Below, in pieces: positions 1,128 through 18,911 of a DNA stretch of 64,000 bases (within the stretch, counting starts at the first letter, position 1; the number at the start of each line of letters is the position of its first letter). The stretch is from the NCBI RefSeq assembly GCF_057098645.1, contig NZ_CM169472.1; one strand, written 5' to 3'. Under the pieces are notes generated by a model, which did no database searches, was not told the DNA's origin, and saw nothing but the letters and a program-made list of their open reading frames with translations. A program made the translations under genes and the position numbers.

Positions 1128-1217
1128 TCAGTGCAGCGCGGCAGTCAAACCCACGGCTACGATCAAACCGAGGACGATAATCGTTGTTACCAGTGAAAAT
1201 TTAAGGTCGGTGCTCAT
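1128..1217 (-). CDS. ynhF: 29-aa hydrophobic small membrane protein (MSTDLKFSLVTTIIVLGLIVAVGLTAALH)
   Basis: Short minus-strand ORF with an AAGGAG Shine-Dalgarno about 7 nt upstream of the ATG; single predicted TM helix; matches my memory of K-12 small protein YnhF. Confidence 0.55.
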   Translation of the reverse strand: MSTDLKFSLVTTIIVLGLIVAVGLTAALH

Positions 1218-1455
1218 CAAGTTTTCTCCTTTTTTATTACCACACAAAAAGTGATATTACGCATTTTTACACACTGTGATGAAAAAATCTCCCGTCATTT
1301 ATAATGATAAGTGTTTTTACCACTTCCCCTTTTCGTCAAGATCGGCCAAAATTCCACGCTTACACTATTTGCGTACTGGCCATTGACCCCTTCCTGACGC
1401 TCCGTGTCGTTTTTCCGGCGTACCGCAACACTTTTGTTGTGCGTAAGGTGTGTAA

Positions 1456-1471
1456 AGGCAAACGTTTACCT
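1456..1471. promoter_or_regulatory. PurR operator (PUR box) in purR 5' leader
   Basis: aGGCAAACGTTTACCt contains the GCAAACGTTT core of the PUR box; purR is known to be autoregulated. Confidence 0.55.
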
Positions 1472-1515
1472 TGCGATTTTGCAGGAGCTGAAGTTAGGGT
1501 CTGGAGTGAAATGGA

Positions 1516-2541
1516 ATGGCAACAATAAAAGATGTAGCGAAACGAGCAAACGTTTCCACTACAACTGTGTCACACGTGATCAACAAAACACGTTTCGTCG
1601 CTGAAGAAACGCGCAACGCCGTGTGGGCAGCGATTAAAGAATTACACTACTCCCCTAGCGCGGTGGCGCGTAGCCTGAAGGTTAACCACACCAAGTCTAT
1701 CGGTTTGCTGGCGACCAGCAGCGAAGCGGCTTATTTTGCCGAGATCATTGAAGCAGTTGAAAAAAATTGCTTCCAGAAAGGTTACACCCTGATTCTGGGC
1801 AATGCGTGGAACAATCTTGAGAAACAGCGGGCTTATCTGTCGATGATGGCGCAAAAACGCGTCGATGGTCTGCTGGTGATGTGTTCTGAGTACCCAGAGC
1901 CGTTGCTGGCGATGCTGGAAGAGTATCGCCATATCCCAATGGTGGTGATGGACTGGGGTGAAGCAAAAGCTGACTTCACCGATGCGGTCATTGATAACGC
2001 GTTCGAAGGCGGCTACATGGCCGGGCGTTATCTGATTGAACGCGGTCACCGCGAAATCGGCGTTATACCCGGCCCGCTGGAACGTAACACTGGCGCAGGC
2101 CGCCTTGCCGGTTTTATGAAGGCGATGGAAGAAGCAATGATCAAGGTGCCGGAAAGCTGGATTGTGCAGGGTGACTTTGAACCTGAATCCGGTTATCGCG
2201 CCATGCAGCAAATCCTGTCGCAGCCGCATCGCCCTACTGCCGTCTTCTGTGGTGGCGATATCATGGCAATGGGCGCACTTTGTGCTGCTGATGAAATGGG
2301 GCTGCGCGTCCCGCAGGATGTTTCGCTGATCGGTTATGATAACGTGCGCAACGCCCGCTATTTTACGCCGGCGCTGACCACGATCCATCAGCCAAAAGAT
2401 TCGCTGGGTGAAACAGCGTTCAACATGCTGTTGGATCGTATCGTCAACAAACGTGAAGAACCGCAGTCCATTGAAGTGCATCCGCGCTTGATTGAACGCC
2501 GCTCCGTGGCTGACGGCCCGTTCCGCGACTATCGTCGTTAA
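1516..2541 (+). CDS. purR: Purine repressor PurR (LacI family)
   Basis: 341-aa [27 protein letters not shown]... with N-terminal HTH; recognised as PurR. Confidence 0.97.
1543..1558. promoter_or_regulatory. Second PUR box-like operator inside purR coding sequence
   Basis: cgaGCAAACGTTTCCa near-consensus PUR box about 30 bp into the ORF; purR is reported to have an operator within its coding region. Confidence 0.5.
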
Positions 2542-3470
2542 TCACCCGTTGCGGGAGTCTCTTCCGGCTCCCGCAGCCACTCCTTATTCAGCGTCTCACT
2601 ATCGCCGAGATACTCAAGCAACCAGGTTAACGCAGGCGACATATCATTTTGCTGCCATGTCAGACAACATGCCGAATCCGGAAAGGGGTTTTCCAGTTCT
2701 AATGCTACCCACTTCCCCTCATTAAGCCACGGTTTGGCGAAATGTGTTGGCACCATCCCTATGCATAATCCTGCAGAGATACAGGTTGCCGATGATTCCC
2801 AGTCAGGTACGACAAGTCTTTTTTGGTTATCCAGCAACCAGGTAATACGTTTAGGTAGCGTTCGCGAGGTGTCTTCGCGCACCAACGACGGCCAGTTGCG
2901 CAACGTATCATCGCTGAACGGGCCATCCATCAACGCCAGCGGGTGGTGACTGGCAACAACGCAACTCCAGCTTAGCATCCCCATATCCCGGAAGGCATAA
3001 CGACCGCCTACCGGAATCGCGCGTGTTGCGCCAATCGCCAGTTCCACGCGCCCGTCGGAAAGCGCATCCCAGACACCGTTGAACACTTCCTGAAAGACAA
3101 GAAGTTCGACATCATCAAAATGGCGATAAAAATCAACGATCATCTGCCGTGTACGTTCTGGCCTGACAATATTATCCACTGCGATAGCTAACTGACCGCG
3201 CCAGCCGTTCGCTATCTGCTGACATTGCTGCCGAGTGATCTGCATTTTTTTGACAACAGAGCGCCCTTCTTTGAGAAACCACGCTCCGGCAGCGGTCAGC
3301 TCCACATCACGGTGCCGTCGTTCAAACAGCGGCACCGCCAGCCACTCTTCCAGCTGACGTACGGTATAGCTGACCGCAGAAGGAACGCGATGCAGCTCCT
3401 GTGCCGCAGCGCTAAAACTACCATTACGCGCTACCGCATCAACAACTTCGAGTGAATATTCTGACCACAT
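2538..3470 (-). CDS. ydhB: LysR-family transcriptional regulator YdhB (PunR)
   Basis: 310-aa minus-strand ORF with LysR-type N-terminal HTH; stop codon overlaps purR stop in a shared TTAA. Confidence 0.9.
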
Positions 3471-3582
3471 AGTCTGCCTGCAAAATTTTTGAAACCAGTC
3501 ATCAAATATTACCGTTTCACAACACTAATTTCACTCCCTACACTTTGCGGCGGTGTTTAATTGAGAGATTTAGAGAATATAC

Positions 3583-4794
3583 ATGCAACCTGGGAAAAGA
3601 TTTTTAGTCTGGCTGGCGGGTTTGAGCGTACTCGGTTTTCTGGCAACCGATATGTATCTGCCTGCTTTCGCCGCCATACAGGCCGACCTGCAAACGCCTG
3701 CGTCTGCTGTCAGTGCCAGCCTTAGTCTGTTCCTTGCCGGTTTTGCCGCAGCCCAGCTTCTGTGGGGGCCGCTCTCCGACCGTTATGGTCGTAAACCGGT
3801 ATTATTAATCGGCCTGACAATTTTTGCGTTAGGTAGTCTGGGGATGCTGTGGGTAGAAAACGCCGCTATGCTGCTGGTATTGCGTTTTGTACAGGCTGTG
3901 GGTGTCTGCGCCGCGGCGGTTATCTGGCAAGCGTTAGTAACGGATTATTATCCTTCACAGAAAGTTAACCGAATTTTTGCGACCATCATGCCGCTGGTGG
4001 GTCTGTCTCCGGCCCTGGCTCCTCTGTTAGGAAGCTGGCTGCTGGTCCATTTTTCCTGGCAGGCGATTTTCGCCACCCTGTTTGCCATTACCGTTGTGCT
4101 GATTCTGCCTATTTTCTGGCTCAAACCCACGACGAAGGCCCGTAACAATAGTCAGGATGGTCTGACCTTTACCGACCTGCTACGTTCTAAAACCTATCGC
4201 GGCAACGTGCTGATATACGCAGCCTGTTCAGCCAGTTTTTTTGCATGGCTGACCGGTTCACCGTTCATCCTTAGTGAAATGGGCTACAGCCCGGCAGTTA
4301 TTGGTTTAAGTTATGTCCCGCAAACTATCGCGTTTCTGATTGGTGGTTATGGCTGTCGCGCCGCGCTGCAGAAATGGCAAGGCAAGCAGTTATTACCGTG
4401 GTTGCTGGTGCTGTTTGCTGTCAGCGTCATTGCGACCTGGGCTGCGGGCTTCATTAGCCATGTGTCGCTGGTCGAAATCCTGATCCCATTCTGTGTGATG
4501 GCGATTGCTAATGGCGCGATCTACCCGATTGTTGTCGCCCAGGCGCTGCGTCCCTTCCCACACGCAACTGGTCGCGCCGCAGCGTTGCAGAACACTCTTC
4601 AACTGGGTCTGTGCTTCCTCGCAAGTCTGGTAGTTTCCTGGCTGATCAGTATCAGCACGCCATTGCTCACCACCACCAGCGTGATGTTATCAACAGTAGT
4701 GCTGGTCGCGCTGGGTTACATGATGCAACGTTGTAAAGAAGTTGGCTGCCAGAATCATGGCAATGCCGAAGTCGCTCATAGCGAATCACACTGA
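3583..4794 (+). CDS. ydhC: MFS transporter YdhC (PunC, purine nucleoside transport)
   Basis: 403-aa multi-TM ORF divergent from ydhB. Confidence 0.9.
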
Positions 4795-5084: not shown

Positions 5085-6233
5085 ATGAGTTCATCGTGTA
5101 TAGAAGAAGTCAGTGTACCGGATGACAACTGGTACCGTATCGCCAACGAATTACTTAGCCGTGCCGGTATAGCCATTAACGGTTCTGCCCCGGCGGATAT
5201 TCGTGTGAAAAACCCCGATTTTTTTAAACGCGTTCTGCAAGAAGGCTCTTTGGGGTTAGGCGAAAGTTATATGGATGGCTGGTGGGAATGTGACCGACTG
5301 GATATGTTTTTTAGCAAAGTCTTACGCGCAGGTCTCGAGAACCAACTCCCCCATCATTTCAAAGACACGCTGCGTATTGCCGGCGCTCGTCTCTTCAATC
5401 TGCAGAGTAAAAAACGTGCCTGGATAGTCGGCAAAGAGCATTACGATTTGGGTAATGACTTGTTCAGCCGCATGCTTGATCCCTTCATGCAATATTCCTG
5501 CGCTTACTGGAAAGATGCCGATAATCTGGAATCTGCCCAGCAGGCGAAGCTCAAAATGATTTGTGAAAAATTGCAGTTAAAACCAGGGATGCGCGTACTG
5601 GATATTGGCTGCGGCTGGGGCGGACTGGCGCACTACATGGCGTCTAATTATGACGTAAGCGTGGTTGGCGTCACCATTTCTGCCGAACAGCAAAAAATGG
5701 CTCAGGAACGCTGTGAAGGCCTGGATGTCACCATTTTGCTGCAAGATTATCGTGACCTGAACGACCAGTTTGATCGTATTGTTTCTGTGGGGATGTTCGA
5801 GCACGTCGGACCGAAAAATTACGATACCTATTTTGCGGTGGTGGATCGTAATTTGAAACCGGAAGGTATATTCCTGCTCCATACCATCGGTTCGAAAAAA
5901 ACCGATCTGAATGTTGATCCCTGGATTAATAAATATATTTTCCCGAACGGTTGCCTGCCCTCTGTACGCCAGATTGCTCAGTCCAGCGAACCCCACTTTG
6001 TGATGGAAGACTGGCATAACTTCGGTGCTGATTACGATACTACGTTGATGGCGTGGTATGAACGATTCCTCGCCGCATGGCCAGAAATTGCGGATAACTA
6101 CAGTGAACGCTTTAAACGAATGTTTACCTATTATCTGAATGCCTGTGCAGGTGCTTTCCGCGCCCGTGATATTCAGCTCTGGCAGGTGGTGTTCTCACGC
6201 GGTGTTGAAAACGGCCTTCGAGTGGCTCGCTAA
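5085..6233 (+). CDS. cfa: Cyclopropane-fatty-acyl-phospholipid synthase
   Basis: 382-aa ORF with SAM-binding motif VLDIGCGWGG; recognised as Cfa. Confidence 0.96.
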   Translation: MSSSCIEEVSVPDDNWYRIANELLSRAGIAINGSAPADIRVKNPDFFKRVLQEGSLGLGESYMDGWWECDRLDMFFSKVLRAGLENQLPHHFKDTLRIAGARLFNLQSKKRAWIVGKEHYDLGNDLFSRMLDPFMQYSCAYWKDADNLESAQQAKLKMICEKLQLKPGMRVLDIGCGWGGLAHYMASNYDVSVVGVTISAEQQKMAQERCEGLDVTILLQDYRDLNDQFDRIVSVGMFEHVGPKNYDTYFAVVDRNLKPEGIFLLHTIGSKKTDLNVDPWINKYIFPNGCLPSVRQIAQSSEPHFVMEDWHNFGADYDTTLMAWYERFLAAWPEIADNYSERFKRMFTYYLNACAGAFRARDIQLWQVVFSRGVENGLRVAR

Positions 6234-6243
6234 AGGCTATTCT

Positions 6244-6270
6244 ATCGCCCCCTCTCCGGGGGCGATTTCA
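6244..6270. terminator. Bidirectional rho-independent terminator between convergent cfa and ribC
   Basis: ATCGCCCCC-tctcc-GGGGGCGAT GC-rich inverted repeat followed by a T-rich tract. Confidence 0.6.
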
Positions 6271-6272
6271 GA

Positions 6273-6914
6273 TCAGGCTTCTGTACCTGGTTGATTCATG
6301 GCATTTTCTCGTGCCGCCAGCACACGTTCTACCGTATCTACCACTGCCTGAGTTTGTGGATCGATTTCAATGTTGACGCGTGCGCCAAGTTTTTTCTTCC
6401 CAAGAGTCGTGCGTTCCAGTGTTTCCGGAATTAAATGGACGCAAAAACGCGTTGGCGTGACTTCGCCGGCGGTCAGGCTAATACCGTCGATGCCAATAAA
6501 TCCTTTGTACAGGATATATTTCATCAACTGACTATCCTGGACTTTAAACCAGATCTGGCGATTATTTTCCGAGGTTAATATTTTCGCCACTTCAGCGGTG
6601 GTCATAATATGACCTGACATTAAGTGTCCGCCAATTTCATCACTGAATTTCGCCGCACGCTCAACGTTTACCCAATCCCCCACTTTTAAATCGCCAAGAT
6701 TGGTAATGCGCAACGTTTCTTTCATCAGGTCAAAACTGACATGGTTGCCGTTAATTTCCGTCACGGTCAGGCAGCAACCGTTATGCGCCACGGACGCACC
6801 GGTTTCCAGGCCGTCCAGCATGTGGTCGGGTAACTCCACCACATGCGTGCGAAAATTTGGTTTCTCGTCAATCGACACCAGTTTTGCGGTGCCCTGTACA
6901 ATCCCCGTAAACAT
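6273..6914 (-). CDS. ribC: Riboflavin synthase
   Basis: 213-aa [16 protein letters not shown]... with duplicated lumazine-binding halves. Confidence 0.95.
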
Positions 6915-18597: not shown

Positions 18598-18911
18598 TCT
18601 TTATACCTATTTATCATGCCAACTATCAGCATATATCAATCTAACCAATTAAACAAAAATCAAACAAAATCAGACAAATAACGCGATAAATTATTTTAAC
18701 TGTAGCAATTGAGCGATGATGTATTTATACACCGGATGAACTTTCACTTATCTTCACAGTGACAACCCCGGCACCAGACGTTGCGCAAACAGCGAAGTTT
18801 TTGCGTAACCTTTTCCCTGGAACGTTAAATCTTTGATAACAATTTATTGTCTAACAAGTTGTATATTTTTTGAAACGCTGTTTTTGTTTTCCTTTTGGAT
18901 TAATTTCAGCG

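Follow-up and report, generated by a model that had tools for sequence, protein, structure and literature searches.

In the stretch of DNA analysed here (64,000 nucleotides of contig NZ_CM169472.1 from RefSeq assembly GCF_057098645.1, hereafter the window), the genes for the purine-synthesis repressor PurR and the purine-nucleoside-uptake activator PunR (YdhB) lie tail to tail, and their coding sequences end in a common TTAA (Table 1). PunR has been characterised experimentally, and the gene context of purR, punR and punC is constant across Enterobacteria (PMC8376909). A sequence-only reading of the window had reported that purR and ydhB (punR) overlap by this 4-bp stop signal, and the overlap is confirmed by the sequence itself (...CGT CGT TAA TCA...), by the open reading frames and by the RefSeq annotation. 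The punR stop codon is the complement of positions 2538-2540; the two coding sequences have 4 bp in common, and the two stop codons 2 nt. RefSeq annotates identical ends for both genes in E. coli O145 RM9872 and also in K-12 MG1655; the K-12 positions are 1737844..1738869 for purR and 1738866..1739798 for punR (subtracting 1736328 from a K-12 position gives the window position). Of 5,423 complete E. coli genomes, 5,127 carry the 81-nt junction at an identity of 99% or more. Bases 1400-3600 of the window match O145:H28 strains at 100% identity and reach 95% or more in 5,423 of 5,426 complete E. coli genomes.

Table 1. Features of the purR/punR junction, in window positions
Feature	Position	Strand	Details and basis
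purR transcription start	1359	+	K-12 1737687; SMRT-Cappable-seq full-length reads ending at the hairpin
purR CDS	1516..2541	+	341 aa; ends CGT-TAA; TAA stop 2539-2541; ORF list and RefSeq
punR (ydhB) CDS	2538..3470	-	310-aa form; ORF list and RefSeq
TTAA overlap	2538..2541	.	both TAA stops lie within it; read from the sequence
Seven extra punR codons 304-310 (E-T-P-A-T-G-D)	2541..2561	-	span the loop and the 5' arm of the hairpin
GC-rich hairpin	2548..2577	.	5' arm 2548-2559, loop 2560-2565, 3' arm 2566-2577
punR codon 304 (GAG)	2559..2561	-	edge of the hairpin loop; stop position (TAA, TAG or TGA) of 303-aa orthologues
C-over-G stretch	2578..2660	+	possible Rho loading region, suggested by GC skew; matches the C>G of PMC6061677
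purR mRNA steady-state 3' end	2579..2580	+	K-12 1738907/1738908; Term-seq and SMRT-Cappable-seq

The overlap is an ordinary feature whose annotation is found in all E. coli genomes, and it falls into a known class, that of 4-nt convergent overlaps. CTAA, TTAA, CTAG and TTAG account, as tetramers, for the jump that the length distribution of convergent overlaps shows at 4 nt (Lillo & Krakauer 2007, PMC2174442); the same study counted 58 convergent overlaps in E. coli and 1,890 across 58 genomes, only 1,218 of which were 5 nt or longer. At the purR/punR junction both partners are real protein-coding genes, as judged from the open reading frames, RefSeq and orthologues of both in 78 species, and the overlap is exactly 4 nt, formed by a tetramer of the YTAR type that is TTAA here and TTAA or CTAA in relatives. 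The TTAA is not beyond chance in any interesting sense, because the complement of purR Y-TAA is TTA-R; the CGY-TAA end of purR thereby closes one of the three reading frames of the minus strand. At the E. coli junction the second minus-strand frame stops at the neighbouring TCA (2542-2544), and the third alone stays open, for 98 nt. The usual origin proposed for convergent overlaps is the loss of a stop codon followed by 3' extension (PMC2716372).

A GC-rich hairpin begins 7 nt past the purR stop and lies within punR codons 299-308. A perfect 8-bp inverted repeat (2550-2557 and 2568-2575) extends to a 12-bp stem with a 6-nt loop, with a predicted free energy of -23.2 kcal/mol on the plus strand (purR sense; z -5.85) and -15.9 kcal/mol on the minus strand (punR sense). 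In a comparative scan with one genome per species, which covered 80 Enterobacteriaceae loci with a PunR relative and 78 species that also have purR, the hairpin was found at the same place in all 78 species (78 distinct sequences, each folded separately). Its mean free energies were -21.1 kcal/mol on the plus strand and -20.7 kcal/mol on the minus strand, with mean z values of -4.2 and -3.2, respectively, against dinucleotide shuffles. A strand preference expressed through G-U pairs was sought and no asymmetry was seen (37 versus 40 species; Wilcoxon p 0.46).

The pairing of the two arms has been maintained through sequence change. When stem pairs were tabulated from the coding 3' arm, with the register set by an invariant Trp codon, several Watson-Crick types occurred per stem position (for example, GC 32, UA 12, AU 12 and CG 5 at one position, and AU 43, CG 18 and GU 10 at another), and the 3' arm alone took 42 distinct sequences. 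Swapping arms between species weakened the fold from a native mean of -20.0 kcal/mol to -14.8 kcal/mol in the chimeras, and none of 5000 permutations reached the native mean; these covariation statistics ignore phylogeny, and the pairs are those of each sequence's own minimum-energy fold. A MAFFT alignment passed to RNAalifold did not recover the hairpin, since the register of the 5' arm differs from lineage to lineage and the arm is misaligned. The 5' arm is complementary both where it is coding (the 310-aa forms of PunR) and where it is non-coding (the 303-aa forms), so protein constraint does not explain its complementarity. Judged by these comparisons of sequence, the hairpin appears to be the selected, conserved element of the purR/punR junction. 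We also considered a REP or other repeated palindromic element and rejected it: the hairpin has a single match in the 64-kb window at up to three mismatches and one place per E. coli genome, and a search of Rfam returned no family matching it.

The end of punR has been far less constant than the hairpin. At loci with both genes, purR is always convergent to punR and always encodes 341 aa. A 4-nt overlap with a 310-aa PunR occurs in 27 of the 78 species; gaps of 14-22 nt, with a PunR of 303 aa, occur in 45, a single species has a 45-nt gap and again 303 aa, and the remaining five have gaps of 1, 3 or 5 nt and a PunR of 307-309 aa. Counted by locus, the genes overlap by 4 nt in 29 of the 80 with both genes, are separated by 14-45 nt in 46 and by 1-5 nt in 5. 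Thus the overlap is absent from 51 of the 78 related species, which keep both the tight convergence and the hairpin, and tail-to-tail spacing is 22 nt or less in nearly all of the 78. A neighbour-joining tree built from purR plus punR requires at least nine changes among the three junction states, and its Fitch root set does not include the overlap. Where a gap is present, the punR stop falls wholly in the hairpin loop in 32 species and across an arm and the loop in 12.

What would happen if the loop stop were lost can be read from the same sequences. In species with in-frame spacers, the next stop would fall at -4 in 9 species and at +5 in 4, and in out-of-frame species translation would mostly read 39-972 nt into purR; punR forms that read so far into purR were found in none of the 78 species. 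We suggest, from these sequence comparisons, that TTAA or CTAA is a safe landing site for a lost stop and not a conserved device. An alternative is that the overlap was selected for itself, either through a functional seven-residue tail on PunR or through genome compaction. The 310-aa form is fixed in E. coli as well as throughout a large Escherichia/Citrobacter/Salmonella clade, as such selection would have it, but the tail is hypervariable, with 25 distinct versions among 28 sequences, and its composition follows the 5' arm of the hairpin. Across the 310-aa orthologues, mean pairwise identity is 31% over the seven final residues, compared with 87% over the 13 before them. Moreover, the 303-aa forms are in the majority and the overlap saves only about 21 nt, and we find selection for the overlap itself barely credible.

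The 3' end of the purR mRNA is itself already present in public 3'-end tables. Term-seq of LB cultures at OD 0.4 placed it at 1738907 (+), and another growth condition gave 1738908, with the printed sequence putting the end at ...GGCTCCCGCAGCCA|CTCC; the site is classed as "primary" with respect to purR and as "antisense" with respect to ydhB (Adams et al. 2021, PMC7815308, Supplementary file 1). SMRT-Cappable-seq independently recovered full-length primary transcripts that start at 1737687, end at 1738908 and cover b1658 alone (Yan et al. 2018, PMC6131387, Supplementary Data 1). In M9, 266 reads were counted at the start, 120 ended at the site and 24 passed it, with a median extension of 36.5 nt; the rich-medium counts were 143, 92 and 15, with a median extension of 30.5 nt (PMC6131387). 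From these counts, about 14-17% of full-length purR reads pass the end. No entry for the locus was found in the TERMITe supplements, and no minus-strand end that could be assigned to punR was present in the Term-seq or SMRT-Cappable-seq tables.

Thus, the purR transcript does not halt before punR: its end lies 2-3 nt beyond the stem and 38-39 nt beyond the purR stop, inside punR. The sequence-only reading had proposed that the transcripts of the two genes necessarily run antisense into each other. The geometry bears this out almost by necessity, since without intergenic space each mRNA must carry some antisense to the other gene, and for purR the mapped end agrees.

Intrinsic terminators place the 3' end 7-9 nt after the stem, within a U-tract. 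The sequence that follows the stem in the purR sense is CACUCCUUAUUC, and across 77 species no U-tract followed the stem on either strand (mean of 2 U in 9 nt, maximum of 4). A consensus terminator scan flagged nothing at the purR/punR junction. For comparison, sgrS in the same Term-seq table ends after 8 U (PMC7815308). A canonical intrinsic terminator is ruled out by the absent U-tract and by a 3' end only 2-3 nt past the stem. One site that the scan returned on the minus strand, at 2418-2402, was dismissed, as 4 sites were found against 3.4 expected by chance.

The purR end has more in common with ends of another kind. Rho-dependent transcripts have precise ends just after stable stem-loops without a U-rich tail; the sequence downstream of these ends, some of which lie inside downstream coding regions, is richer in C than in G, and the stem-loop protects against PNPase and RNase II (Dar & Sorek 2018, PMC6061677). 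At purR, a stable stem-loop lies directly upstream of a precise 3' end in two data sets, the sequence beyond it is low in U, and C exceeds G downstream, with a GC skew of -0.23 to -0.30 on the plus strand in 80-nt windows covering 2520-2659. A list of Rho regions based on bicyclomycin has no entry at K-12 1738200-1739599, for which low expression could be the explanation (Adams et al., Supplementary file 2), and our search of the literature on purR with bicyclomycin turned up only an unrelated paper on sRNA kinetic modelling. From these analyses, the purR end resembles a hairpin-protected end, possibly Rho-dependent, or a bidirectional one. As a rough division, we give Rho action followed by trimming a little under an even chance, with a bidirectional, collision-driven or weak intrinsic mechanism being possible and other processing somewhat unlikely.

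Overlapping bidirectional terminators have been described at convergent gene pairs as being neither intrinsic-like nor Rho-dependent, and the mode of action proposed for them is that polymerases pause and collide (Ju et al. 2019, summarised in bioRxiv 10.1101/2022.10.23.513370). The purR/punR junction has one hairpin common to two convergent units and stable in both senses. Such equal stability fits the bidirectional idea; simple Watson-Crick dominance would fit too. Other convergent junctions of the window offer a comparison. Those of cfa/ribE, mdtK/ydhQ, lpp/ldtE, ydiO/ydiP and fadK/ppsA have gaps of 39-62 nt with one strong GC hairpin each, and ydhS/ydhT has an 11-nt gap (the RM9872 annotation served as the window baseline, with an indel after about 17.2 kb and three junctions relocated). 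At cfa/ribE, the published ends (cfa at 1742597 on the plus strand and ribC at 1742568 on the minus strand) flank one hairpin, and the RNAs overlap by about 30 nt. The purR/punR junction is the cfa/ribE architecture, but with coding sequence grown into the hairpin.

One possibility is therefore that the TTAA is a backstop and that the hairpin is the true terminator, either a non-canonical intrinsic one or an overlapping bidirectional one of the kind described by Ju et al., at which polymerases pause and are released by head-on and trailing collisions, with neither Rho nor exonuclease trimming involved. The hairpin sits exactly at the convergent junction, its near-equal stability in the two senses holds both for the mean energies and for the number of species favouring each strand, no Rho region is called at purR/punR, the bidirectional class is described as neither intrinsic-like nor Rho-dependent, and cfa/ribE is alike in having both-strand 3' ends that flank one hairpin. 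Against these points, the purR end falls nearer the stem than the 7-9 nt of an intrinsic terminator and a U-tract is found in no species; collisions would need appreciable transcription from both sides and punR looks weakly expressed; and no punR 3' end flanking the hairpin is seen in the tables of either method. We regard a true terminator of this kind as unlikely.

We consider it probable that the TTAA is an incidental backstop and that the two genes are packed around one selected stem-loop that defines the purR end. The two genes sit tail to tail around the stem-loop, and most Enterobacteriaceae have the punR stop inside the loop or at its edge, so that the protein has 303 aa and 14-22 nt separate punR from purR. 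The loop stop is absent from Escherichia, from most Citrobacter, from Salmonella arizonae and from several further lineages (E. coli has GAG there), and seven poorly conserved codons are then read through the 5' arm until punR reaches the next in-frame stop, which the complement of purR CGY-TAA (TTAR) provides automatically. The hairpin defines where the purR mRNA ends at steady state, 2-3 nt past the stem. Transcription itself would end downstream, probably through Rho acting on untranslated C-rich RNA, and 3'-to-5' exonucleases would trim the RNA back to the hairpin, which would then protect the purR mRNA. Since neither strand has a U-tract, Rho with trimming seems the likeliest route. As the hairpin is equally stable in both senses, it may likewise serve punR, or it may be a point of pausing or collision for converging polymerases.

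The sequence-only reading had further suggested that the shared TTAA allows transcriptional interference between purR and punR, and we found no support for this: the TTAA is labile, the stable overlap is short and read-through is minor. A broader version is that the overlapping ends couple PurR and PunR by interference or antisense, such that transcribing one gene would, by collision of polymerases or by RNA duplexes, reduce how strongly its partner is expressed. The purR mRNA does extend 38-39 nt antisense into punR, a minority of full-length reads go further, and the tail-to-tail arrangement with spacing of 22 nt or less persists in nearly all 78 species for two genes that act in the same physiology (PMC8376909). 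There are precedents as well, namely the crosstalk of the convergent 3'-overlapping pair arfA/mscL in E. coli (PMC10070815) and collision-driven termination at convergent pairs (bioRxiv 10.1101/2022.10.23.513370). Nevertheless, the TTAA is dispensable, being missing in 51 of 78 species and subject to at least nine changes of state, and the stable overlap, which the hairpin bounds, is short, with read-through reaching a median of only 30-36 nt. Transcripts of punR, moreover, were so scarce that neither data set gave a 3' end for them, and few collisions would therefore be expected. The punR gene appears to be weakly expressed, and its promoter is predicted to be sigma-24-dependent (PMC8376909). 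Our search of the literature found no report of cis effects between purR and punR, and the paper that characterises PunR makes no mention of convergence, overlap or antisense with purR (PMC8376909). We consider coupling by interference or antisense to be quite unlikely, and we infer that the TTAA has no regulatory role, yet two purine regulators that stay adjacent across a whole family could still be functionally coupled in some way.

One form that such coupling could take, which we hold to be very unlikely, is that the hairpin and the gene ends embedded in it make up a reciprocal control point. If polymerases paused or collided at the hairpin, the outputs of purR and punR would become mutually dependent. 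Alternatively, in lineages with the 310-aa form, such as E. coli, a punR mRNA trimmed to the hairpin would be stop-less, because the punR stop lies 7 nt beyond the hairpin, and would be dealt with as a non-stop message. How far punR transcripts extend into purR would then determine the yield of PunR.

The overlap by itself matters little, and purR/punR cautions against inferring regulation from overlapping stop codons. The only mildly new point is the evolutionary picture, in which a stop in the hairpin loop is lost and regained and the opposite strand provides a backstop. In this respect, the pair is a worked example of how a convergent overlap originates: the hairpin is kept, the loop stop is repeatedly lost and regained, and the neighbour's stop limits the damage of each loss. 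The 303-aa and 310-aa forms of PunR also make a convenient natural pair for work on hairpin-defined 3' ends inside coding sequences.

The purR/punR junction can be set beside several known systems. Like an intrinsic terminator, it has a GC-rich stem of about 12 bp a few nucleotides past a stop codon; unlike one, it has no U-tract, its 3' end is 2-3 rather than 7-9 nt from the stem, and the terminator scan was negative. With the stem-loops of Dar & Sorek (PMC6061677) it shares a precise end past a stem-loop, the missing U tail, the excess of C over G downstream and an end in the coding sequence of the next gene, but theirs depend on Rho and exonucleases and no Rho region is called at purR. Bidirectional terminators (Ju et al.; can/hpt, PMC6131387) resemble it in having a single hairpin at a convergent junction, a non-intrinsic look and stability in both senses; at purR/punR, by contrast, the purR end alone is mapped, the hairpin is inside a coding sequence and not intergenic, and punR is apparently poorly expressed.

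Regulatory 3'-overlap pairs of the excludon-like kind, including arfA/mscL (PMC10070815), likewise have convergent mRNAs that are complementary at their 3' ends. Their overlap is long or has a demonstrated effect on the partner's expression, whereas the stable overlap of purR/punR is about 40 nt at most and no such effect is documented for it. The closest match is the class of YTAR overlaps (PMC2174442), which likewise comprises convergent genes overlapping by exactly 4 nt, here through a TTAA with a stop on each strand. The purR/punR overlap arose by 3' extension following stop loss, the origin usually proposed for such overlaps (PMC2716372). There is no essential difference between that class and the purR/punR overlap; what the junction adds is that the ancestral stop position, in the hairpin loop, and the repeated toggling between states are visible in its relatives.

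Term-seq (Adams et al., PMC7815308) places two 3' ends early in purR, one in the leader 11 nt 5' of the ATG and one within the gene at +108, and both are entered as "No" in a column that appears to record Rho-dependence. A pur-box-like sequence precedes each of the two ends by some tens of nucleotides. It is possible that these ends are connected with autoregulation of purR, or else they may be decay intermediates. The region upstream of purR also holds a strong match to the enterobacterial sRNA STnc550 (311.6 bits, E = 3e-80), which overlaps the cydH/ynhF small ORF and extends as far as the purR start codon, which places the match antisense to the purR leader.

Coordinates of the features discussed
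Feature	Window position	Strand	Other coordinate	Basis
STnc550	at least 1200-1515 (search range started at 1200)	-		Rfam search
cydH/ynhF	1128-1217	-		
Pur-box-like GCAAACGTTT	1458-1467 and 1546-1555			sequence match
purR leader 3' end	1505	+	K-12 1737833	PMC7815308
purR internal 3' end	1624	+	K-12 1737952	PMC7815308
cfa/ribE junction	6233-6273			
ribC 3' end		-	K-12 1742568	PMC7815308, PMC6131387
cfa 3' end		+	K-12 1742597	PMC7815308, PMC6131387
fumD	about 222 nt lower than in RM9872		RM9872 18605-18813	RM9872 annotation
ydiO	about 222 nt lower than in RM9872		RM9872 40870-42020	RM9872 annotation

Up to about 17.2 kb, the window differs from E. coli O145 RM9872, the closest RefSeq record, only by scattered single-base changes. 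From about 17234 onward, an indel shifts the coordinates by about -222 nt relative to RM9872, and the strain of the window is therefore related to RM9872 yet different from it. The RM9872 record carries fumD and ydiO as frameshifted pseudogenes in its annotation, a status that refers to that record.

The purR/punR junction itself varies among relatives. Among the species compared, only Enterobacter sp. kpr-6 has a wide gap (45 nt), which is due to an insertion of about 28 nt that carries a second hairpin (GGCCTGCGGTTTTACGCTGCAGGCC) and is placed between the purR stop codon and the conserved hairpin. The third junction type occurs in the Enterobacteriaceae MAG UBA5654 and two Superficieibacter species (loci L067, L077 and L069), where punR encodes 309 aa and its stop codon, which reads TTA or TCA on the purR strand, is separated from the preceding purR TAA by a single base (TAAgTTA or TAAgTCA), such that the two stop codons almost abut without overlapping.

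A further convergent pair in the window, cfa and ribE, is separated by a gap of 39 nt that holds one strong GC hairpin. Published tables of 3' ends place those of the cfa and ribC mRNAs on either side of this hairpin in K-12, and because these ends flank the hairpin, the mRNAs have an overlap of about 30 nt. The cfa/ribE layout is the intergenic counterpart of the purR/punR layout.
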